From: an uncultured Candidatus Saccharibacteria bacterium
GTDB taxonomy: Bacteria > Patescibacteriota > Minisyncoccia > Phycocordibacterales > UBA12088
Reading direction: 5' to 3'
Assembly: GCA_964411375.1 (NCBI GenBank)
Contig: CAYPKR010000001.1
Coordinates: forward strand, 40,227 to 104,226
DNA length: 64,000 nucleotides
Numbering within the stretch: the first letter of the stretch is position 1; the number at the start of each line of letters is the position of its first letter. The position numbers were made by a program, and so were the translations under genes. The notes beneath the pieces were generated by a model. The model did not search any database. It was not told the origin of the DNA and worked only from the letters and a program-made list of their open reading frames with translations. Below are positions 1-10,852 of the stretch, one piece after another.

Positions 1-1591
1 GCCGCATGATGAAATATTTGTTGCCTGATTTTTTGGCACGCGCACGAAGCTCTTCAACCGATCCGATGACAACAACTTTTCCAGTAGCAGAATTTTTCCA
101 GATCGGAAGTGGTGATGCCCAGTAGCGATTGCGAGAAATTGTCCAATCAGGCGCTGACTCGACGATATGCTTGAACCGACCGCTCTTTAGATGATCCGGT
201 ACCCAATGGATTCCTTCGTTCAATTCAAGTAATCGATTTTTTACATCCTGCACATTGATGAACCATGACGGAATCGCGTTATAGATGAGCGGCGTATTAC
301 ACCGATAGCAATGCGGATATGAATGGGTTCGATTTTCGACACTGAAGAGAAAGTTTCGATCACTCAAATCTTTTTTAATGAATGCTTCGGCATCTTCACC
401 TTTCTGAACCGGACAAAAACCGCGCTGGTGCCATTTGAAATATTTCCCTTTGATCAAATCAGGTGCGTCCGTATTGAATGTGCCATTTGGATTTAGAAGT
501 TGCACCATCGGTAAATCTACTTTTTGTCCGAGTGCGAAGTCATCTTCACCGTACATAACTGCGGTATGCACAACGCCTGTTCCTTCGTCGGTCGAGACAA
601 AATCTGCCGCAACGACATAGTGCGATTTTCTTCCGCTCGATTGAATTTTTTCAATTGCAAAGAGTGGCTCGTATTCAAGACCGAGAAGATCACGTCCTGT
701 CCAATTTTCTTTTTCCTTGTATGAAATATCGCCAAGTGCAGACAGGCGCTCCTTCGCAAGAATTACCGTTTCTCCTGAATCAGAGAGAAGTGCCGACACA
801 TATGCGATATCATTTCCAACCGCAAGCGCCACGTTTCCTGGAAGTGTCCACGGGGTTGTTGTCCATGCGAGAATGAAAGTGTTTTCAGGAATATCGTTTC
901 CAGCAATTTTTTGTCCCGGTTTCAATTTGAATTTGACGACGACCGACTCTTCGGTGACATCTTCGTACGAATTGTCTTGTGCGATTTCTGCTTTAGCGAG
1001 CGGTGTTTCGTCGTGCGGACAATACATCAAAACCTTTCGTCCTTCGTACAATTTTCCTTTCTCGTAAATCTGCTTAAGTCCCCACCACACGCTTTCGATA
1101 AACGTGTTGTCCATCGTCTTGTACGAGTTGTCGAAATCAACAAAGCGCCCGACGCGATCGATGTAGTATTTCCAATCATGTACATATTCGAGCACGACTG
1201 ATCTTGCGGCTTCGTTAAATTTCTCGATTCCGATCGCTTCAATATCTTTCTTACTTTTGAGTCCGAGTTTTTTCTCGATCATGCTTTCAATCGGAAGTCC
1301 GTGGCAGTCCCATCCCCACCTGCGCTCCACATGGAAGCCCTGCATCGTTTTGTAACGTGGGATCACATCTTTGATGACCGAGGAAAGAAGACTTCCCGAA
1401 TGTGGGAGTCCGGTTGCAAATGGCGGGCCGTCATAAAAGACAAATTCGCCCTTCGGAGAGGGTTTCTCAAGAGATTTTTTGAAAATATTGTTGTCTTTCC
1501 AGAACTTTAGTATCGCCTCTTCGCGAAGCGCTGTCTCGGTTTTTTGCTGATTTTCTGGAGTTTTTCTATCGTCTTTTTTGGGTTCTGCCAT
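1..1591 (-). CDS. ileS: isoleucyl-tRNA synthetase, N-terminal part (gene runs off the window start)
   Basis: Minus-strand ATG at 1589-1591. My own translation of the reverse complement reads MAEPKKDDRKTPENQQKTETALREEAILKFWKDNNIFKKSLEKPSPKGEFVFYDGPPFATGLPHSGSLLSSVIKDVIPRYKTMQGFHVERRWGWDCHGLPIE. This matches the eukaryote-like (type 2) IleRS N-terminus (FYDGPPFATG..H.G. region). The frame stays open to position 1. It is absent from the ORF track because there is no stop inside the window. Confidence 0.75.
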   Translation of the reverse strand, partial: MAEPKKDDRKTPENQQKTETALREEAILKFWKDNNIFKKSLEKPSPKGEFVFYDGPPFATGLPHSGSLLSSVIKDVIPRYKTMQGFHVERRWGWDCHGLPIESMIEKKLGLKSKKDIEAIGIEKFNEAARSVVLEYVHDWKYYIDRVGRFVDFDNSYKTMDNTFIESVWWGLKQIYEKGKLYEGRKVLMYCPHDETPLAKAEIAQDNSYEDVTEESVVVKFKLKPGQKIAGNDIPENTFILAWTTTPWTLPGNVALAVGNDIAYVSALLSDSGETVILAKERLSALGDISYKEKENWTGRDLLGLEYEPLFAIEKIQSSGRKSHYVVAADFVSTDEGTGVVHTAVMYGEDDFALGQKVDLPMVQLLNPNGTFNTDAPDLIKGKYFKWHQRGFCPVQKGEDAEAFIKKDLSDRNFLFSVENRTHSYPHCYRCNTPLIYNAIPSWFINVQDVKNRLLELNEGIHWVPDHLKSGRFKHIVESAPDWTISRNRYWASPLPIWKNSATGKVVVIGSVEELRARAKKSGNKYFIMR

Positions 1592-1669
1592 AGGAAAATA
1601 TTACCGCGTGTTTTCCAAATATAGCATATAAAAAGCAAGCGGCGGATCCGAGGGTCCGCCGCGATATTG

Positions 1670-1936
1670 CTAGTGCCTAGCCAGTGGCTGCACCGTGATT
1701 GGTCCCTGTCTAATCATCGATGGGAGCATGAATTCTGCAATGAGTGGTCCCGATCTCACATCTACACAATACTGTTTCTGGTGAACGTGACGCCCCAAAA
1801 ATGGTCCGCCAAACTCCGGACTATAGGAAATGACTGCCATGCAGCCGAGTGCGTGTATAGCCTCAAGCGACTCACGGGCTTTGTCCAAGTCTGTCGTCCA
1901 TACAACTCCAACCTCTCGGAGCAGGGCTGCGTGCAT
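1670..1936 (-). CDS. hypothetical small protein (possibly a gene remnant) between ileS and argS
   Basis: 88-aa ORF in the 420-bp gap. No clear ribosome-binding site and no recognisable motif. Confidence 0.2.
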   Translation of the reverse strand: MHAALLREVGVVWTTDLDKARESLEAIHALGCMAVISYSPEFGGPFLGRHVHQKQYCVDVRSGPLIAEFMLPSMIRQGPITVQPLARH

Positions 1937-2008
1937 TCGGTGTCTCCAAGAAAAGAACTGCTCTTTTTTCGAGCATACCCCTGCCCTGACGGAGATACAA
2001 GGGGATAA

Positions 2009-3691
2009 TTACATTTTTTCCGACGTTTTGATGCCGAGAAGTTGGAGTCCGTTTTGCATTGTGATTTGGAACGCACGAGTTAGGGCAACTTTGTACGGCG
2101 AAGTGGAATCATCTTTGTTTACAATCTGCTCATTGGCGTACCAAGAGTTGAATGCGCCAGCGAGTTCGGTGAGATACGTCGTCAGGTAGTGTGGCTCATA
2201 TGCGGCAGCGGCCCGTTCAACTATTTCTGGGAAACGATAAAGAAGTCGCTCGAGAATAGAAATTTCCTTAGGTGATTCACCATCCACATCTTCCCCAACC
2301 CCCTCCTTTTTTGCTTTTTCAAGAACCGAAAGCGCGCGAGTGTGTGCATATTGGAGATACGGTCCCGAATCACCTTCAAGCGAAAGCGATTTCTCAGGAT
2401 CAAACACCATGTCCTTCCCTGACGATTGGCGAAGGATTGTATATTTGATCGCCGCAACCGCAACCATTTCTGCAATTTCTTCTTTATTAGAAAGTTCACG
2501 GCCTTCCATTTTCTCTCGCGCCGCCTGCTTCATATCTTCAATGAACGATTCCCCGGTTACGATATTCCCTTTTCTTGATGACATTTTGCCACCAGAGAGT
2601 TTCATAAATCCATGAGTGATATGTCGCGTCCGTTCAGCAAGTTTAGGGAATAGCTTTCGCATTGCAGAGAGAAGTACCTTGAAATATTCAGTGATTTCAT
2701 TTGCCGTTACCACAATCGAAAGGTCATAGTTCGTCTTTTCAAACTTTATCTTCGCAAGTCCAAGTTCTTTTGCTTCGTAGGTTGGAAGTCCTTGAGAATT
2801 TAAAAAGACGCGAGTATGAAGCCCTTCGTCTTCTCCTCGATACACAACCGCACCGTCACTTTTCTCGAACACACCTTTCCCCAGCCCTTCCTCGACAACG
2901 TTCTTTCCTATCGTTCCGGTTTCACTTTCAAAAAAGTATTCGTCAAACTTGGTACCGAGGATTTTATAAATTTCTTCGAATCGGTCAAGAGACGTTTGTC
3001 GTCCGATATCGTACAGAGTATTTACCTCTGCATCACTCCGTTCATAAATTATTTTATTGAGTGCATCAATTTCTTTTTTAACATTTTCGTCACTTTCATA
3101 GTGTTCATTACCAAACGCATACGCTTCTCCAATTTCTTTGATATTTTTTGGATCACTTTGTTTCTGTTGCATTCCCCAGATTGCTTTTGCAACATGCAGT
3201 CCAACATCACCTTGATAGTTGGCACGAGTAACTTCAGCGCCACTCGTTTCATAGAGTCGCGCAATTGATTCACCGATGATATTGGTCATCAAATGACCAA
3301 TATGAAATGGTTTGAATGGATTTGGGTCGGTGTATTCAACGGTGACTCGTTCTCCACTCCATGCTTTGTTTCTTCCCCATTCCTCTTTCTTCTCTAGAAT
3401 TTCTTTTGTTTCAGTAGTGAAGTGTTCCCTATTTAAATGAAAATTGATAAAGCCAGGACCAGCAACTTCAATTTTTTGAATCATCGAGTTCTCCGAAAAT
3501 GCAGCGATTATTTCTTCAGCAAGCGCGTGCGGGCTTTTCCCTGCAACTTTTGCGAGCGCGAGCGCTACATTTGATGAATAGTCGCCACGAGGAAGTTCGG
3601 CTGGATGTTCGAGAGGAATTGAATCGAAATCAGCCGACCAGAGATCGCCAAGCGCTGACTTGATACCCTTCCGTATTTCATCCTGAATCAT
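2009..3691 (-). CDS. argS: arginyl-tRNA synthetase
   Basis: ORF 2009..3826. The conserved ArgRS N-terminus begins at an internal Met (MIQDEIRKGIK, ATG 3689-3691). Class I motifs FHIGHL and KMSSRKG are present, as is the ArgRS anticodon-binding C-terminal region. Confidence 0.95.
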   Translation of the reverse strand: MIQDEIRKGIKSALGDLWSADFDSIPLEHPAELPRGDYSSNVALALAKVAGKSPHALAEEIIAAFSENSMIQKIEVAGPGFINFHLNREHFTTETKEILEKKEEWGRNKAWSGERVTVEYTDPNPFKPFHIGHLMTNIIGESIARLYETSGAEVTRANYQGDVGLHVAKAIWGMQQKQSDPKNIKEIGEAYAFGNEHYESDENVKKEIDALNKIIYERSDAEVNTLYDIGRQTSLDRFEEIYKILGTKFDEYFFESETGTIGKNVVEEGLGKGVFEKSDGAVVYRGEDEGLHTRVFLNSQGLPTYEAKELGLAKIKFEKTNYDLSIVVTANEITEYFKVLLSAMRKLFPKLAERTRHITHGFMKLSGGKMSSRKGNIVTGESFIEDMKQAAREKMEGRELSNKEEIAEMVAVAAIKYTILRQSSGKDMVFDPEKSLSLEGDSGPYLQYAHTRALSVLEKAKKEGVGEDVDGESPKEISILERLLYRFPEIVERAAAAYEPHYLTTYLTELAGAFNSWYANEQIVNKDDSTSPYKVALTRAFQITMQNGLQLLGIKTSEKM

Positions 3692-3885
3692 ACGAGCAGT
3701 ATACGGATAAACTGCTTTTTTGACAGTGTTGCATAGTGGGGTCAAGGGCAGTACAGTTTCTTTTAGGACATGGCAAGCGGAGATGTGCCGTGCGCGTATT
3801 CTCCTTAGCACTACTCGCGATCCCAACCGTGTTTAACCCAAAGGGGTCCACACGCGAGAATCTCCCCGTCTATCCTCCACATTAT

Positions 3886-4185
3886 TTGAAATTAGTGTGT
3901 GAGAATCCTGATAACTTCAGGACGGCGGTAGACAAATTTACCACAGAGGCAAAGAGGGGGGTTATTCTAGACATTGTTGACAACACACCGTCGGAGGGCT
4001 GTGTATTGCTTTCAAAAGCCGAATACGATGTTGATGGAAACCCCTTGAGAGATCCTGGGTTCAAGTTTACCTTGAAATTTGAAAAGGATGGGTCAGAGAT
4101 TATTTTCGAAACCGTTCCCGTCCTCATGCGTAAGCTATCGCCCGGATTTCTGCTCACCGTCATCTACGTTCAAGGCTCATCATGA
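3886..4185 (+). CDS. hypothetical small ORF (non-ATG start) followed by a GC-hairpin repeat
   Basis: Open frame 3736..4185 overlaps the argS 5-prime end. The only non-overlapping starts are TTG 3886 or GTG 3895. Stop TGA at 4183-4185 lies 14 nt before hairpin repeat copy 1. Coding status is uncertain. Confidence 0.25.
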   Translation: MKLVCENPDNFRTAVDKFTTEAKRGVILDIVDNTPSEGCVLLSKAEYDVDGNPLRDPGFKFTLKFEKDGSEIIFETVPVLMRKLSPGFLLTVIYVQGSS

Positions 4186-4198
4186 AGAACTCCGAGCT

Positions 4199-4230
4199 CC
4201 CGCGGTGCAAGCCGCGGGTATCCTTTTGTC
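4199..4230 (+). repeat. GC-rich hairpin repeat copy 1 (CCCGCGG-TGCAAG-CCGCGGG, then TATCCTTTTGTC); terminator-like
   Basis: Perfect 7-bp GC stem with a 6-nt loop in an AT-richer background. About 85 percent identical over roughly 36 nt to the copy at 4672-4708. Confidence 0.7.
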
Positions 4231-4293
4231 AGAAGTTGCTGACCGTGATCGGATGACGTAGAGTGCCGGTAGAGACCGTTGGGAGAATGTGTC

Positions 4294-4950
4294 GTGAAGC
4301 AACTGATGCTACTCGTTGGTGTCGCCTTGTTGATCGGCGGTTGTGCAGGAATGGAAACTCGTGATCCCCGACCCCTCATTCAACCGTTGGCAGAGCAAAA
4401 ATCGGAGATGATCACCATTTGTGATTCAAGGATGTCGATCATTGCAGCGGTTATCGACAAGAAAAAATCCGCGAATCCTGACCTTTCCGGCGGAGATTGT
4501 CGCGAGTATCTTCGGACACTGATCACCAACAAGAAATTTGATGCCTCAATCGGTATTCTCATTCCTAGCGAGCAGACAATAATGAGTGTCATCATTGGGA
4601 AAGTAACTCTCTCCGATGGAAAAGTTGGGTACGTACTTGCTTCGCTCGAGTTTTACATACCGAACCCCACCCGAAGTCCCGCGGCGCAAGCCGCGGGCAT
4701 TTTTTATACACCTGACTTAGACGAACTTCTCCGGAATTGGAAATTTCTTGCAGAGTTTTTGAATTTCTTTGTGAATTTCTGCTTTCTTCTTTTTGTTATC
4801 TTTATTTCGAAGCGTTTCAATTATAAGTTCTGCAATCCTGGCAGACTCTTTTTCTTTCATCCCGCGAGTGGTGATCGCTGGAGTCCCAAAACGAATGCCG
4901 GATGGATCCATAGGACCTCTCGGATCATCGGCAATTGCATTTTTATTTAG
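4294..4950 (+). CDS. putative lipoprotein; C-terminal extent uncertain (no in-frame stop before 4950)
   Basis: GTG 4294 preceded by GGGAGA. N-terminus VKQLMLLVGVALLIGGCAG is a lipoprotein signal with lipobox LIGGC. The frame reads through hairpin repeat copy 2 and runs antisense across the last 78 codons of glyA. The true end is probably near 4700. Confidence 0.4.
   Translation: MKQLMLLVGVALLIGGCAGMETRDPRPLIQPLAEQKSEMITICDSRMSIIAAVIDKKKSANPDLSGGDCREYLRTLITNKKFDASIGILIPSEQTIMSVIIGKVTLSDGKVGYVLASLEFYIPNPTRSPAAQAAGIFYTPDLDELLRNWKFLAEFLNFFVNFCFLLFVIFISKRFNYKFCNPGRLFFFHPASGDRWSPKTNAGWIHRTSRIIGNCIFI
4672..4708 (+). repeat. GC-rich hairpin repeat copy 2 (CCCGCGG-CGCAAG-CCGCGGG, then CATTTTTTATA); bidirectional terminator-like, 9 nt from the glyA stop
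   Basis: Stem 4678-4684 pairs with 4691-4697. T-run at 4700-4706. The glyA stop codon is at 4717-4719. Confidence 0.7.
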
Positions 4951-5991
4951 AGTAATACCAACTTCATCAAGAACATTTTGCGCATCTTTGCCGGTTACCC
5001 CAAGTGAAGAATACACGTCTGCGAGAATGAGATGATTATCGGTACCGCCCGCAAGCATTCTAATTTTTTCTCGCTTGAATACTTTTTCCATGGCTTTTGC
5101 ATTCTTCAAAATCTGTCTGGCGTACGTTTTGAATGAAGGTTTGAGCGCTTCACCAAAACACACTGCTTTTGCGGCAATCACGTTCATATGTGGACCTCCT
5201 TGAAGGCCAGGGAAAATTGCCTTATCAATCTTCTTTGCATACTCCGCATTTTCACGAACTAAGATCATTCCACCTCGTGGACCGCGAAGCGTCTTATGGG
5301 TCGTAGTCGTAATAATGTCGAATCCGTAGTCGAATGGATTTTTGACGGCTTTCCCTGCAATGAGTCCGGCAATGTGTGCCATGTCAGCAACGGTGATCGC
5401 ACCAACTTCCTTGGCAATCGCAACGAATTTTTTGTAATCGAGTTCGCGGGGATACGCAGAAAATCCGGCCAAGATAATTTTTGGTTTTTCTCGCTTCGCA
5501 ACGCGACGAAGTTCTTCATAGTCAATTTCTCCAGTATCAACATTTTTCATCTTGTAGGTAACAAAACGAAAAATCTTCGCAGGGAATGTCATCGGATGTC
5601 CATGCGTCAAATGCCCTCCATGTGAGAGATCCATGCCGAGTACTGTGTCTCCGGGATTAAGGAGTGCGGCGTACATTGCGAGATTTGCCGGAGCGCCGGA
5701 GAGTGGCTGAACGTTTGCAAATTTTGCATTAAATAATTTTTTGGCACGCTCTATTGCGAGTGTTTCAACCGCATCAGTAAATTCCTGTCCGCCATAGTAG
5801 CGATTGCCCGGATATCCTTCCGAATATTTATTGGTCATTGCGGAGCCCAATGCTTCGCGAACCGCATATGACACATAATTTTCAGATGGAATGAGTTCTA
5901 CCCCGTCTGCCTGTCGCTTCTCTTCGCCAATCAGTGCAGAGAAAACTTGTTTGTCTTGTTTTCCAACAAATGAATATTGTTTCTGATTCAT
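4717..5991 (-). CDS. glyA: serine hydroxymethyltransferase
   Basis: 424 aa. Reads ELIPSENYVSYAVREALGSAMTNKYSEGYPGNRYYGG, with a PLP-lysine region (TTTTHKTLRGPRGG). Full-length SHMT. Confidence 0.97.
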   Translation of the reverse strand: MNQKQYSFVGKQDKQVFSALIGEEKRQADGVELIPSENYVSYAVREALGSAMTNKYSEGYPGNRYYGGQEFTDAVETLAIERAKKLFNAKFANVQPLSGAPANLAMYAALLNPGDTVLGMDLSHGGHLTHGHPMTFPAKIFRFVTYKMKNVDTGEIDYEELRRVAKREKPKIILAGFSAYPRELDYKKFVAIAKEVGAITVADMAHIAGLIAGKAVKNPFDYGFDIITTTTHKTLRGPRGGMILVRENAEYAKKIDKAIFPGLQGGPHMNVIAAKAVCFGEALKPSFKTYARQILKNAKAMEKVFKREKIRMLAGGTDNHLILADVYSSLGVTGKDAQNVLDEVGITLNKNAIADDPRGPMDPSGIRFGTPAITTRGMKEKESARIAELIIETLRNKDNKKKKAEIHKEIQKLCKKFPIPEKFV

Positions 5992-6044
5992 GATCGATTT
6001 CTAGTGTTCGGGTAATTCAGTTGTTGACTCGTCAGATCATAGGA

Positions 6045-7007
6045 TTATCCGTGAATTTTTTTATTATATCCCCCGATTACCGTTAGGTCACCTTTGATTG
6101 TTGGATGGGGCTCATACCCTTCAAGCTTCACCATTTCAGGACGGAATGTGTCGAGTGAATCGAAATCTTCAGTAAACGAAATTCGCGGAAATGCTTTTGG
6201 AGTGCGTGAAATTTGCTCCATTGCCTGCTCTTTGTGGTTTCCATATATATGCACGTCGCCAAAGGTATGGATAAACTCTCCCGGTTCGCGACCTAAGATT
6301 TTAGCAACGACCATAGTAAGAAGCGCATAACTTGCGATGTTGAACGGCACACCAAGAAAAATATCCGCGCTGCGTTGATAGAGCTGGAGACATACTTTGC
6401 CGTGTTTAATATTGAACTGAAACATGTTGTGACAAATCGGATAGCGCGCCGCTCTTCCAGGAGCCGCCATGCCGTAGAGATACTCAGGATTCCATGCGGA
6501 AAGTACCGTGTTGTGCGCAAACGGATCATTCTTGAGTTCATTTACAATCCATCCAAGCTGGTCGACTTTTCTGCCGTCAGATGCTGGCCACCGTCTCCAA
6601 AGTTCACCATAAATTTGTGGAAGCTCTCCGTGGAGTTTGGCAAATTCAGCATCTTCTTTTATTTTTTCAATAAATGCTTCCTGCGAAAGTTCGGGAACCT
6701 CTCCCTTCTCCATTTTTTCTTTGTAGTAGCGATATGGATATGCGTCCCAAATATGAACATCTCGGTCAACCAGATATTTGATATTGGTCTGCCCTGAAAG
6801 AAACCAATAGAGTTCTTCGATTACTCCCTTCCAGTAGACGCGCTTTGTCGTGAGAAGCGGAAATCCTTCGGACAAATCAAAGCGCATTTGTCTCCCAAAC
6901 AAACTGTACGTGTGTGCGCCAACTCCAGCATCAACCTGCTCTTCCCCTTTATCGAGGATTTCGCGAATGATGTCGAGATATTGTTCTTCAGGGTGGCGCG
7001 CGTTCAT
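6045..7007 (-). CDS. thyA: thymidylate synthase (ThyA type)
   Basis: The conserved N-terminus starts at an internal Met (MNARHPEEQYLDIIREIL, ATG 7005-7007). Active-site region PICHNMFQFNIKHGKVCLQLYQRSADIFLGVPFNIASYALL. Confidence 0.93.
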   Translation of the reverse strand: MNARHPEEQYLDIIREILDKGEEQVDAGVGAHTYSLFGRQMRFDLSEGFPLLTTKRVYWKGVIEELYWFLSGQTNIKYLVDRDVHIWDAYPYRYYKEKMEKGEVPELSQEAFIEKIKEDAEFAKLHGELPQIYGELWRRWPASDGRKVDQLGWIVNELKNDPFAHNTVLSAWNPEYLYGMAAPGRAARYPICHNMFQFNIKHGKVCLQLYQRSADIFLGVPFNIASYALLTMVVAKILGREPGEFIHTFGDVHIYGNHKEQAMEQISRTPKAFPRISFTEDFDSLDTFRPEMVKLEGYEPHPTIKGDLTVIGGYNKKIHG

Positions 7008-7008
7008 A

Positions 7009-7569
7009 TTATTTTTTCTTTCCTGGTCGCTTTTTTGCGGCAACAAAATTTTTGAAATTATCTTTTGAGTAGCGACCGGTGTCTTTGTAGCTTTGACGTG
7101 GCGGAGACGTGAGGCGAGCAAATGTTAACTGCGCAATCGCCATGTTTGGACGGAGAATAATCGGCACATTATTGAGATTACAAAGCTCAAGTGCGACATT
7201 CAAAAAATGTCCGGGGTTAATCAGCGCGGCAGAATTGTGCACAAGCAGTCCGATTCGTGCGAGTGATGATTTTCCATTTACTTCGATCAGATACTCATCG
7301 CTTCCAAAAAAATCTTTCGAGTAGCCGAGGATTGAAACGCCTGGATGCAGGACGAAAATATCATCGTTACCAATTTTGATTTCTTTTGTCTTTGGAAAAA
7401 TCTTTTTAACTGGATCAATGAAGGTCGACGAGTGCGCATCGTTTACGAAAAAAGTATTACCGAGAAGAATGTCATAGCTCGCCGGCTGTAAACGTTTTTC
7501 ATCAAACGGCTTCAGTACGATTCCGCCGGCGGAAACTGCTTTTTTAATATCGACATCAGAAAGAATCAT
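7009..7569 (-). CDS. dcd: dCTP deaminase (dUTPase superfamily)
   Basis: MILSDVDIKKAVSAGGIVLKPF...QPASYDILLG, a typical Dcd N-terminus. Its stop lies 1 nt before the thyA start. Confidence 0.88.
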   Translation of the reverse strand: MILSDVDIKKAVSAGGIVLKPFDEKRLQPASYDILLGNTFFVNDAHSSTFIDPVKKIFPKTKEIKIGNDDIFVLHPGVSILGYSKDFFGSDEYLIEVNGKSSLARIGLLVHNSAALINPGHFLNVALELCNLNNVPIILRPNMAIAQLTFARLTSPPRQSYKDTGRYSKDNFKNFVAAKKRPGKKK

Positions 7570-7587
7570 AGGAAGACTGGTTATCTA

Positions 7588-8259
7588 TTATTGAACGGTA
7601 AATACTTTTTCTGTCCCGTAATAATCTGGCCAATTGTTGTTATAAAACTGAAACATTCGTTCCAATCGATCCTGCGGAAGCTCCACGACTCCCATTTCGT
7701 CCATAATGGAACGAAGATCCTTTTTGGTTTGCTCCGCCTTCGACTGATCGTCAATCATTCGCTCGAATTCCGCTAAATACCCGTAGCCTGCATTTTTATC
7801 GATACATACTGTTACGTCCTTGAACACGTATTCTTCGCGATCGCGCGACCATTTTGCTTGGTAGCGAAATCCGGCGGAAAGAATTTTTGCGTCCAACTCG
7901 TCGAGCGAGAGCGGGACTTGCTCTTCAAACTCAATACGTGCGGTACCATTTTCGCTTGTCGTATCATCGATTGTCGCTTTTATGATGAAGAGCACTCGGT
8001 GATCGCGGTCTGCGGTTCTGATTGAATACGATTTGGCGTATGAAACGATATTTTCAAGTTTTTTCTGCTGCTCTTCGTTCAAAACATTCTTGAAAACTCC
8101 CGGCAGATTAAGAATGTCGCCTTCTTCGAAGTAGTGATTTTTTTGGGATGTTTTCTTCGGCGCTACTTCAGGATCACGAAGATGTAACCTTTTCCGAAGC
8201 TCTTCCGCCTTGTACTGATCGTCAAGCAGGCTTTTTATCTCGATTTCGTAGGAATGCAT
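7588..8259 (-). CDS. CYTH-domain protein (CyaB / thiamine-triphosphatase-like)
   Basis: ORF 7588..8424. The CYTH-like N-terminus MHSYEIEIKSLL begins at an internal Met (about 8259). The upstream 55 codons have no support. Confidence 0.55.
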   Translation of the reverse strand: MHSYEIEIKSLLDDQYKAEELRKRLHLRDPEVAPKKTSQKNHYFEEGDILNLPGVFKNVLNEEQQKKLENIVSYAKSYSIRTADRDHRVLFIIKATIDDTTSENGTARIEFEEQVPLSLDELDAKILSAGFRYQAKWSRDREEYVFKDVTVCIDKNAGYGYLAEFERMIDDQSKAEQTKKDLRSIMDEMGVVELPQDRLERMFQFYNNNWPDYYGTEKVFTVQ

Positions 8260-8534
8260 TCCGGCAATTATACCCTGGGGCAGTGTCCGCAAAAAAGGAT
8301 TGCCTTCTTTCTGTTTCGTGGCGTAATCAAACCAGTTGCAGATATATAGACTTGTGATTAGATTCAAAACAGCGAGGTCAGTAATCGGACTGCTTGAGGG
8401 TGGGCAAACCTGTGTCCGACCCACGGGACTAATCGAAAGTAGGGTGCCAAGGTCCTACTGAATCCGGTGAATGGGGGTGTTCAACGAATGCGACCCTTGG
8501 TCCAACATGTTGACCCACACCTCGCCACTTTTAG

Positions 8535-8560
8535 GAAGGCCTTCGGGCCTTTTTCTTTTT
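8535..8560 (+). terminator. plus-strand intrinsic terminator-like hairpin (GGCC-TTCG-GGCC plus T-run) 29 nt upstream of folA
   Basis: GAAGGCCTTCGGGCCTTTTTCTTTTT. There is no plus-strand gene upstream. It lies at the end of a 330-bp noncoding region. Confidence 0.55.
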
Positions 8561-8588
8561 GATAGCGTGAAAATGCTACAATCCCTGT

Positions 8589-9110
8589 ATGGAAAAATGG
8601 AATGGAAAAGTCTGCATTACTGTTGGACTCGGCAAAAATGGCGCTAACAATAACGCGATCGGAAAAGATGGCGGCCTTTTGTGGCATATTCCAGATGATC
8701 TGAAGCGATTCAAGGCGCTTACCCTCGGGCACCCGATCATCATGGGGCGGAAAACCTTTGAATCGATTGTAAAAATGATTGGCAAACCGCTTCCGGGACG
8801 CACGAATATTGTCGTCACGAGAGATCCGGTCTGGGCATACGACGACGTCGCGGTGTTTCATTCGATCGAATCAGCACTTGAATATGCAAAAACGCTCGAC
8901 GATGTGGAAGTTCATATCGGCGGAGGGGGTGAAGTATATAAAGCAGCACTTCCCTACACGGACAAGCTCTATCTCACATTAATCGACGGAGAAAAAGAAG
9001 CGGATTCTTTTTTCCCAGAATATGAAAAAGAATTTACGAAGAAAACATTCGAGGAGGAGCATGAATTTGATGGACTTAAATATCGGTTTGTAAATCTGGA
9101 ACGGGAATAA
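8589..9110 (+). CDS. folA: dihydrofolate reductase
   Basis: GGLLWHIPDDLKRFKALTLGHPIIMGRKTFESI matches the DHFR signature. Confidence 0.9.
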   Translation: MEKWNGKVCITVGLGKNGANNNAIGKDGGLLWHIPDDLKRFKALTLGHPIIMGRKTFESIVKMIGKPLPGRTNIVVTRDPVWAYDDVAVFHSIESALEYAKTLDDVEVHIGGGGEVYKAALPYTDKLYLTLIDGEKEADSFFPEYEKEFTKKTFEEEHEFDGLKYRFVNLERE

Positions 9111-9164: not shown

Positions 9165-9737
9165 TCATGCTGCAGATACGGTATCAAGACTCCACATGCC
9201 GAGCTTTATGATAGCAGCGAGAAAGGCTGCTCGACGGTCAGGAGGCGTATGAGAACTGCTTAGTCCGTGATGAAAGGATGTTGGACACCCAACCCATCTC
9301 GGATTGCGAATTTCTTTATTGCATTTGGGTATAAATGCATGAGTTGCCTGTACCGACACCAGAAACATATGCGTCCACGAGTAATCGCTTCTGGTTGATG
9401 CAATAACGCACGAATGCAATAATACTGACTCAGAAAAATCGAGATGTTGGAGTGTACCCTTACCGCATTCCTCACGGAGTTCTCTTCGAAGCACGGCCTC
9501 AAGAGAGACATCTTCTTCTTCCGGAGCACCTCCGGGAAATGTGAGTCGCGGAAATCTTTTTGGGCTATTTCCGCTATCGCACATGAAAATTGAGTCTTCG
9601 TGGCGAATGACTGCCTTGACACTGGCACGAGTGCCGGGTAGCGGTTTGCGAATCGACCTCCAGAGATCTCTTGGTATTGCTGTGAGTGAAATTGGGAGTT
9701 GGAAGTTAGAAGGGTTCTCTCTAGACTTCTTCGTCAT
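9165..9737 (-). CDS. NUDIX hydrolase
   Basis: Nudix box GGAPEEEDVSLEAVLRRELREECG. N-terminal start uncertain. Confidence 0.75.
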   Translation of the reverse strand: MTKKSRENPSNFQLPISLTAIPRDLWRSIRKPLPGTRASVKAVIRHEDSIFMCDSGNSPKRFPRLTFPGGAPEEEDVSLEAVLRRELREECGKGTLQHLDFSESVLLHSCVIASTRSDYSWTHMFLVSVQATHAFIPKCNKEIRNPRWVGCPTSFHHGLSSSHTPPDRRAAFLAAIIKLGMWSLDTVSAA

Positions 9738-9802
9738 TACCGCCTTCCTCGTTTGTGTTCAGATCTGAAAAAAGCCTACGTCTCATTTGGAGATGAGTCA
9801 AG

Positions 9803-9840
9803 AAACAGCCGCGGCGCCAAAGGCGCCGCGGCTGTTTCTT
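9803..9840 (-). terminator. perfect GC-rich palindrome (AAACAGCCGCGGCGCC-AAA-GGCGCCGCGGCTGTTT), terminator after rplK
   Basis: 16-bp arms with the same CCGCGGCGC core as the 4.2/4.7-kb hairpins. T-rich on the plus-strand side. Confidence 0.7.
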
Positions 9841-9859
9841 ATTTATATTTTGAAGTCTC

Positions 9860-10282
9860 TTATTTAACCTCAACCCCCATCGATCGTGCCGTACCTGCGA
9901 TCACATTCATTGCAGCATCGACATCGTTTGCGTTAAGGTCAGGCATCTTCTTCTCTGCGATTTCGCGTAGCTGGGTCTTGTTCAATGTTCCAACCTTTGA
10001 AACCAAGTTTTTTCCAGAGCCCTTGTCCTTGCCGAGTGCTTTGAGGATCAAGGTCGATGCAGGAGAAACCTTGAGTATGAAGTCGTAGGTTCGGTCTTCG
10101 TATACCGTGATTTCAACTGGCGTGAGGTCGCCCATATTTGGACGTGTCGCTTCGTTAAATTTATTAACGAAGTCGCCAATGTTGATTCCTGCCTGTCCAA
10201 GTGCCGGACCAATAGGAGGAGCCGGGGTTGCCTTCCCCGCAGGAATGATAAGTTTGAGTTTTTTAGTGATTTTCTTTGCCAT
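9860..10282 (-). CDS. rplK: 50S ribosomal protein L11
   Basis: [35 protein letters not shown] is a near-universal L11 sequence. Confidence 0.97.
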
Positions 10283-10306
10283 ATTTTCTAGCTCGGTTAC
10301 CGTACC

Positions 10307-10852
10307 TTATATTCGCTTAACCTGCAAGAAGTCGAGCTCAACTGGGGTCTCGCGACCGAACATCGGCACCAAGACCTTGACTTTGCCGCGCTCTTCGTCG
10401 ATTTCGCCGACCTTTCCTTCAAGTTCCTTGAATGGGCCGTCAACGACAATAACTGGATCATCAATCTGGAGTTCAATCTGATGCTTCACCGTGTCAGACG
10501 ACATGCGCTTCATCAAAATGTCCACCTCCTTTTCTTCCAAAGGGACCGGATGCACGCCGGAGCCGACGAAACCGGTGACGCGCGGCGTGTTTCGAACCAA
10601 GTACCACGAATCATCGGTAACGATCATGTTGACCAAGATGTAACCGGGATAGACTTTCTCCTCTTCTTCTGCGCGCTTGCCGCCTTTAATCTTGATTTTC
10701 TTTTCAGTTGGAACAACGACTTCAAAAATTTTATCTTCCATTCCAAGCGATTCGATGCGTTGTTTCAAATTGCGCTCGACTGCTTTTTCATAGCCTGCAT
10801 AGGTGTGGATCGCGTACCACCGTCTCTCTCCCGTTGTTTCTTGTTTTGACAT
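10307..10852 (-). CDS. nusG: transcription termination/antitermination factor NusG
   Basis: RWYAIHTYAGYEKAVERNL NGN domain plus C-terminal KOW (VGEIDEERGKVKVLVPMFGRETPVELDF). Confidence 0.95.
   Translation of the reverse strand: MSKQETTGERRWYAIHTYAGYEKAVERNLKQRIESLGMEDKIFEVVVPTEKKIKIKGGKRAEEEEKVYPGYILVNMIVTDDSWYLVRNTPRVTGFVGSGVHPVPLEEKEVDILMKRMSSDTVKHQIELQIDDPVIVVDGPFKELEGKVGEIDEERGKVKVLVPMFGRETPVELDFLQVKRI

Follow-up and report, generated by a model that had tools for sequence, protein, structure and literature searches.

A duplicated terminator-like hairpin and an orphan, predicted lipoprotein frame without a stop codon ahead of it, in an insert between glyA and argS of a CPR bacterium

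The window, which is the whole 64-kb stretch of DNA that was analysed, carries about 1 kb of lineage-specific DNA between glyA and argS. Two plus-strand ORFs lie in this insert, opposite to the flanking housekeeping genes, and each is followed by one copy of a near-identical hairpin, as the preliminary description had stated. The second of them, ORF2, encodes a predicted lipoprotein and reaches its hairpin with no stop codon in between. ORF2 is most likely a young gene that is probably decaying, and not a new mechanism. Recent stop loss or 3′-end truncation in a young, fast-evolving orphan gene with a locally duplicated terminator has somewhat better than an even chance of being the explanation, as against a designed device. 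As it stands, the locus represents ordinary biology: an intrinsic terminator present in duplicate and an orphan gene that is probably in decay, at a variable spot of a streamlined CPR genome. The features of the locus are as follows.

2009 to 3691, minus strand: argS (arginyl-tRNA synthetase), divergent from ORF1, with TATACT 6 nt ahead of the ATG at 3691
3692 to 4716: the lineage-specific insert (about 1 kb), bounded by the stop of glyA and the start of argS
3790 to 4185, plus strand: ORF1, an orphan gene coding for 131 aa, the N-terminus hydrophobic and signal-like, with the stop TGA at 4183-4185
4192 to 4226, plus strand: repeat copy 1, predicted intrinsic terminator of ORF1, with the stem-loop at 4199-4218 and the tail TATCCTTTT
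4294 to 4950, plus strand: ORF2, predicted orphan lipoprotein gene, with a credible coding part from 4294 to about 4656 and an antisense overlap of 234 nt with glyA
4671 to 4705, plus strand: repeat copy 2, predicted intrinsic terminator inside the ORF2 frame, with the stem-loop at 4678-4697 and the tail CATTTTTT; the copy ends 11 nt away from the stop codon of glyA
4717 to 5991, minus strand: glyA (serine hydroxymethyltransferase), convergent with ORF2, with the stop codon at 4717-4719

The two copies are 35-nt direct repeats with 83% identity, close to the roughly 85% first proposed, and their hairpin parts are identical at 19 of 20 positions. The flanks outside the hairpin also agree, at 10 of 15 positions (P about 0.0015). 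The copies described earlier are real, with coordinates that were 1-2 nt off, and so is their GC stem, although an 8-bp G+C stem (copy 1 having one U-G pair in it) closed by a GCAA tetraloop fits better than the 7 bp with a 6-nt loop given at first. The 20-nt hairpin, CCCGCGG(T/C)GCAAGCCGCGGG, has exactly two occurrences in the window, where 0.01 would be expected. Folding gives -17.5 and -21.1 kcal/mol for copies 1 and 2, with z = -2.3 and -4.7. Both hairpins score as terminator-like, and their T tails are on the plus strand, which is the strand of the upstream ORF; the stable folds and the tails bear out the terminator look noticed at first. On the minus strand, copy 2 has an A tract ahead and no U tract, the sequence after it being ACTTCGGG. 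Both hairpins thus have the anatomy of a textbook intrinsic terminator, and termination at them is predicted. Rho-independent terminators with GNRA tetraloops share with both copies the short G+C stem, the GCAA loop, and the U-rich tail. The usual place of intrinsic terminators in E. coli is shortly after the stop codon (PMC6060812). Copy 1 has this usual position, the TGA of ORF1 being 16 nt ahead of its stem, whereas copy 2 lies inside an open frame.

The hairpins had also been assigned to a small family of GC-rich palindromes, with a related member serving as the rplK terminator at 9803-9840. A hairpin is indeed present there, and is listed here as a separate feature.

9800 to 9840, downstream of rplK, a minus-strand gene: predicted rplK terminator, a 19-bp perfect palindrome with a 3-nt loop

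This palindrome is different from the repeat, however, and the 9-mer CCGCGGCGC is the sole part that the two stems have in common. The family itself was not recovered. No further copy of the repeat is found beyond the two, which lie 479 nt apart, in the approximately 70 kb read (the window and 6.3 kb of extra contig). The hairpin 20-mer has no copy in the relatives' loci, and its flanked forms are likewise missing, the 30-mer from the JGI metagenomes and the 24-mer from the viral contigs. A dispersed family of palindromic elements of REP or MITE type is consequently held to be highly improbable, even though a GC-rich palindrome in a 45% GC genome, flanks that are alike above chance, and the 9-mer in common with the rplK hairpin would be in line with one. 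REP and BIME elements resemble the repeat: they too are imperfect, GC-rich palindromes of some 35 nt that lie at gene ends and between convergent genes. In contrast, they are dispersed in tens to hundreds of copies.

The bare 20-mer is present in at least 120 unrelated genomes, which are mostly GC-rich (mean 65% GC among the matches listed) and comprise, among the matches listed, Bradyrhizobium, Bosea, Paraburkholderia, and Acidobacteria. Of 121 instances among the matches listed, 59 have a T tract behind the 20-mer, and an A tract often precedes it; the host genome itself is not among these matches. This spread over unrelated genomes indicates a generic, convergently reached terminator core and not a marker of a mobile element. 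Within the window, every other clear terminator has a stem sequence of its own. Since the hairpin occurs exactly twice while each of the other terminators differs in its stem, the most fitting explanation of the pair is local duplication or short-patch conversion, and not convergence. An integron cassette array, in which small ORFs would each carry an attC palindrome, was considered and rejected on reading the sequence, as the repeat is just 35 nt long and no attC-like core sites were seen.

The best start of ORF1 is GTG at 3790, with GGAG at 3779-3782, 7 nt upstream, and replaces the start at 3830 of the preliminary description. The best start of ORF2 is GTG at 4294, with GGGAGA at 4281-4286, likewise 7 nt upstream. 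The lipobox rule of PROSITE PS51257 comprises a basic N-terminal region, a hydrophobic core, no charge in the six preceding positions, and the motif [LIVMFWSTAG](2)-[LIVMFYSTAGCQ]-[AGS]-C. The N-terminus of ORF2, MKQLMLLVGVALLIGGC, has a basic residue near the start, an uncharged hydrophobic core, and a lipobox; it conforms to this rule, with Cys at position 17, read directly. Family matches of ORF2 are very weak and N-terminal, and all of them are lipoproteins (QoxA, TraV, and phage Cor). The lipoprotein signal reported at the outset is thus upheld.

Coding potential was scored with a 3-periodic Markov model trained on 21 long genes of the window. Real genes score 0.138 +/- 0.068 in leave-one-out windows, and the means of non-coding frames range from -0.17 to -0.53. 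ORF1 scores 0.071 in frame (3790-4182), versus -0.2 to -0.63 in other frames, and ORF2 scores 0.081 over 4294-4671. On these scores both ORFs look like genuine, if slightly unusual, genes, although the values lie about 1 sd under the gene mean. For ORF2 the coding signal ends at about the repeat: the score is -0.019 over the hairpin and tail (4672-4716) and -0.054 in the ORF2 frame over glyA (4717-4947), where the glyA frame on the opposite strand scores 0.132.

Neither ORF has a recognizable relative in the collections searched. In a word-indexed search of 5.8 billion clusters, ORF1 matched itself alone and ORF2 matched nothing. Full HMMER searches with both over 1.84 billion representatives gave three matches, all to repetitive stretches of long proteins; these were judged spurious, the one that was aligned being a eukaryotic formin with WH2-type repeats. 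ORF1 has no Pfam, NCBIfam, or PHROG family, and ORF2 has no real family match in Pfam, NCBIfam, and PHROGs. Relatives of both were absent from the viral contig scans, and those of ORF2 from the JGI metagenome scan. Structure prediction for the two ORFs gave pLDDT values of 42.6 and 39.2, which are too low for a fold search; in the low-confidence model of ORF2 (pLDDT 42.6), the last strand ends at residue 121, with coil beyond. Paralogy of ORF1 and ORF2 was also rejected, with a BLASTP E of 0.78: the shared part is the 35-nt unit alone, and a longer alignment is unconvincing.

The ORF2 frame, which reads ...LEFYIPNPTRSPAAQAAGIFYTPDLDE... at this point, is open through the hairpin, and its first in-frame stop is at 4948-4950. 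The absence of a stop ahead of the hairpin and the open frame to 4950 are therefore as first described. Elsewhere in the window, clear hairpins at gene ends have the stop beginning 7-25 nt ahead of the stem, and ORF2 is the sole exception. The two other frames also cross the hairpin and stop at 4713-4715 and 4718-4720. As these stops also lie beyond the hairpin, a simple indel error cannot put a stop ahead of it. Codons one substitution away from a stop are TAC at 4654 (residue 121, to TAA or TAG), CGA at 4672, CAA at 4687, and TAT at 4705. Farther downstream, ORF2 enters glyA in the codon-aligned antisense frame, where stops arise only opposite TTA, CTA, and TCA codons. Because these three make up 2.3% of the codons in the genes of the window (mean open run, 44 codons), the probability of a frame open for at least 77 codons is 0.17. 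The 234-nt extension over glyA is no separate anomaly, and the real oddity is the absence of a stop in 4654-4716.

The missing stop could be an artefact of the consensus or assembly, or the product of a strain mixture, with the true stop near 4654-4716, for example TAA for TAC at 4654 or TGA for CGA at 4672. The genome is metagenome-derived and several of the last 25 codons are one substitution from a stop, so that this is conceivable, but it is considered unlikely. Over window positions 1-6345, an independent Logan assembly of run SRR12487045 agrees at 100% identity, although the two assemblies may share reads. A shift of +/-1 would be no remedy either, with the other frames stopping at 4713 and 4718, past the expected transcript end. 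A frameshift around 4650-4720, which the preliminary description had proposed to look for, is accordingly unlikely as the cause. Alternatively, ORF2 and perhaps ORF1 might not be genes at all, the insert being non-coding debris and the hairpins insertion remnants or insulators of glyA and argS. The lack of homologues among several billion proteins, the low confidence of the structure models, and the fact that the gene callers behind the searched collections skipped ORF2 point in this direction. The chance of this is nonetheless rated as low: the coding scores are plainly above zero in frame and far below zero in each of the five other frames, a Shine-Dalgarno motif precedes the start of each ORF, the lipoprotein signal of ORF2 is complete, and the T tails of both hairpins are on the ORF strand. 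Read-through is about as doubtful. Here the ribosome would block the hairpin, transcription would enter glyA antisense, and a protein of 218 aa would end at 4948-4950. A closely trailing ribosome could suppress an intragenic terminator in ORF2, the frame is open as required, and a hydrophobic part of the tail (FLNFFVNFCFLLFVIFI) might be taken for a membrane helix. Against this, the extension scores as non-coding and its openness is within chance, the Phe-rich tail is the antisense of the Lys/Glu-rich C-terminus of glyA, and neither of the annotations represented in the databases calls the long ORF2 a gene.

Natural and engineered systems exist in which a terminator inside an ORF yields a non-stop mRNA. 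This arrangement leads to tmRNA tagging and degradation for brfA of Bacillus subtilis (PMC6881298), for arfA of E. coli, and for engineered constructs (PMC3989581). ORF2 is similar to brfA and arfA in having an intrinsic terminator or stem-loop within the ORF, ahead of the stop. A regulated non-stop gene of the brfA/arfA design, whose lipoprotein would accumulate only once the capacity for trans-translation is exceeded, would account for an ORF that leads into a strong terminator with no stop between, as in brfA and engineered tmRNA substrates, and for the intact coding signal of ORF2. This is nevertheless very unlikely. The products of brfA and arfA are small cytoplasmic ribosome-rescue factors that are functionally tied to trans-translation, whereas ORF2 is an orphan whose predicted product, an exported lipoprotein, resembles neither ArfA nor BrfA nor any other family. 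No homologues were found in the searches above, so the arrangement is not conserved, and ORF2 is located in a variable, lineage-specific insert. In addition, the stop of brfA comes soon after the terminator, a few codons on as in arfA, while the ORF2 frame has no nearby stop and runs 84 codons beyond the hairpin stem. By analogy with these genes, ORF2 would be a natural non-stop lipoprotein gene of a CPR bacterium with an output dependent on spare trans-translation capacity, for which the chance is very slim. If true, it would extend the regulatory logic of brfA and arfA to a gene unrelated to ribosome rescue, and trans-translation as a control on an exported protein would be something new if the non-stop layout is functional. 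The engineered non-stop reporters of Keiler et al. 1996 (as cited in PMC3989581) have the same layout as ORF2, with the coding sequence running straight into a terminator. Those reporters are artificial, in contrast to ORF2, which is a natural locus, known here from sequence alone, and shows in nature the exact layout of the classical engineered tmRNA substrate.

The favoured reading, recent loss in a decaying or barely expressed young ORF2, follows from the orphan status of the gene, the variable locus, and the many single-step routes to the present state. About 1 kb has been inserted between glyA and argS with two orphan genes for small exported proteins, each closed by one copy of the locally duplicated intrinsic terminator. 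Copy 2 may act as an insulator that blocks ORF2 transcription from running antisense into glyA. The stop of ORF2 may then have been lost through a single substitution, which would be enough, or by short-patch copying in which the terminator unit overwrote the original 3′ end of ORF2. If copy 2 terminates, the ORF2 mRNA would end in the U tract near 4703-4706 with no stop codon. Ribosomes on this mRNA would run to the 3′ end, where trans-translation would have to free them, with tagging and degradation of the product. The earlier suggestion of a non-stop transcript, possibly a tmRNA substrate, is thus legitimate in view of the missing stop and the terminator anatomy, with termination being predicted from the sequence only. 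The host is assumed to have tmRNA and SmpB, as both are nearly universal among bacteria (Keiler et al. 2000, as cited in PMC6514570). Neither tmRNA nor smpB is found in the 64-kb window, which is uninformative for a piece of that size.

In the ArgRS search, the host genome groups with CPR/Paceibacteria-type bacteria. The named matches are Candidatus Taylorbacteria, Pacebacteria, and Kaiserbacteria, at 57-59% identity, and the matches leave a gap in the database between 79% and 100% identity. In L123, the closest relative (ArgRS 79%), glyA and argS lie on one strand, with 19 nt from stop to ATG and no gene between. This spacer of 19 nt indicates that 3692-4716 is a lineage-specific insert. The insert has no match to the relatives' loci or to the remainder of the window, no support was found for a phage or mobile origin, and no known RNA families were found in 3600-4900. 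Among the more distant relatives, a JGI contig (ArgRS 76%) has an 82-aa ORF on the opposite strand between glyA and argS. L127 (ArgRS 69%) has a divergent ORF with a signal peptide upstream of argS, on a contig that ends before any glyA. L125 and L126 (ArgRS 61%) have a 154-aa opposite-strand ORF and a DUF2914 gene between glyA and argS. None of the small ORFs at the relatives' glyA-argS gap resembles ORF1 or ORF2. This suggests that the junction has repeatedly gained unrelated small opposite-strand genes for exported proteins in the clade, each sealed by a strong terminator against glyA.

The terminator of the 154-aa ORF in L125 has a 10-bp stem, a GAAA tetraloop, and a U tract (-23.4 kcal/mol), and is unlike the hairpin of ORF1 and ORF2. 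It abuts the glyA stop, and the TAG stop of the ORF lies inside the 3′ arm of the hairpin. The position of this TAG indicates that overlap of coding sequence and terminator at a squeezed glyA junction occurs in the clade. The present state of ORF2 is one substitution away from the kind of arrangement seen in L125.

The glyA–argS junction is a variable spot in the clade. It was compared at window 3692-4716 and in three relatives' loci, L123 (600-660), L125 (2290-4000) and L127 (1-214). In the closest relative, L123, the junction is empty, with 19 nt between the genes. Others carry unrelated small ORFs there, either opposite-strand or divergent. Signal-like N-termini are present in at least ORF1 and ORF2 of the window and the L127 ORF (L127 1-214). 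On the minus strand of L125 (2297-2330), an orphan ORF of 154 aa has its stop codon within the 3' arm of its own GAAA-tetraloop terminator, whose U tract reaches to 2 nt from the convergent glyA stop.

Within residues 44-81 of ORF2 (window 4420-4540), two segments, DSRMSIIAAVIDKKK and DCREYLRTLITNKK, loosely repeat each other. They draw weak matches to a eukaryotic formin, in its WH2-type tandem repeats; these matches were judged spurious.

The start of argS has a TATAAT/TATACT box conserved in three genomes, just 6-7 nt 5' of the ATG:
window 3692-3720, minus strand
L123 629-648
L127 190-213
No Shine-Dalgarno motif was seen on reading the sequence between box and ATG in these genomes. This spacing and the lack of a visible motif suggest that the argS mRNA may be leaderless or near-leaderless and have its own promoter, even with glyA adjoining.

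A thymidylate/folate gene cluster flanks the ORF1/ORF2 locus (window 4717-9110):
from 4717, minus strand, glyA (Pfam support)
6045-7007, thyA (Pfam support)
7009-7569, putative dCTP deaminase-like gene (translation reading)
8589-9110, putative DHFR-like gene (translation reading)

Further along, in the nusG–rplK region (window 9165-10852), a very strong terminator, a 19-bp perfect palindrome of -39.9 kcal/mol, comes after nusG and rplK. The usual gene after rplK is rplA; here it is a 190-aa ORF, Nudix-like as we read it.

The isoleucyl-tRNA synthetase has a length of 1185 aa:
window 1-1591, minus strand, extending past the window edge
L122 4299-7856
It has a histidine-phosphatase (His_Phos_1) match flanked by two tRNA-synt_1 matches, a pattern also found in relatives L123 and L126.
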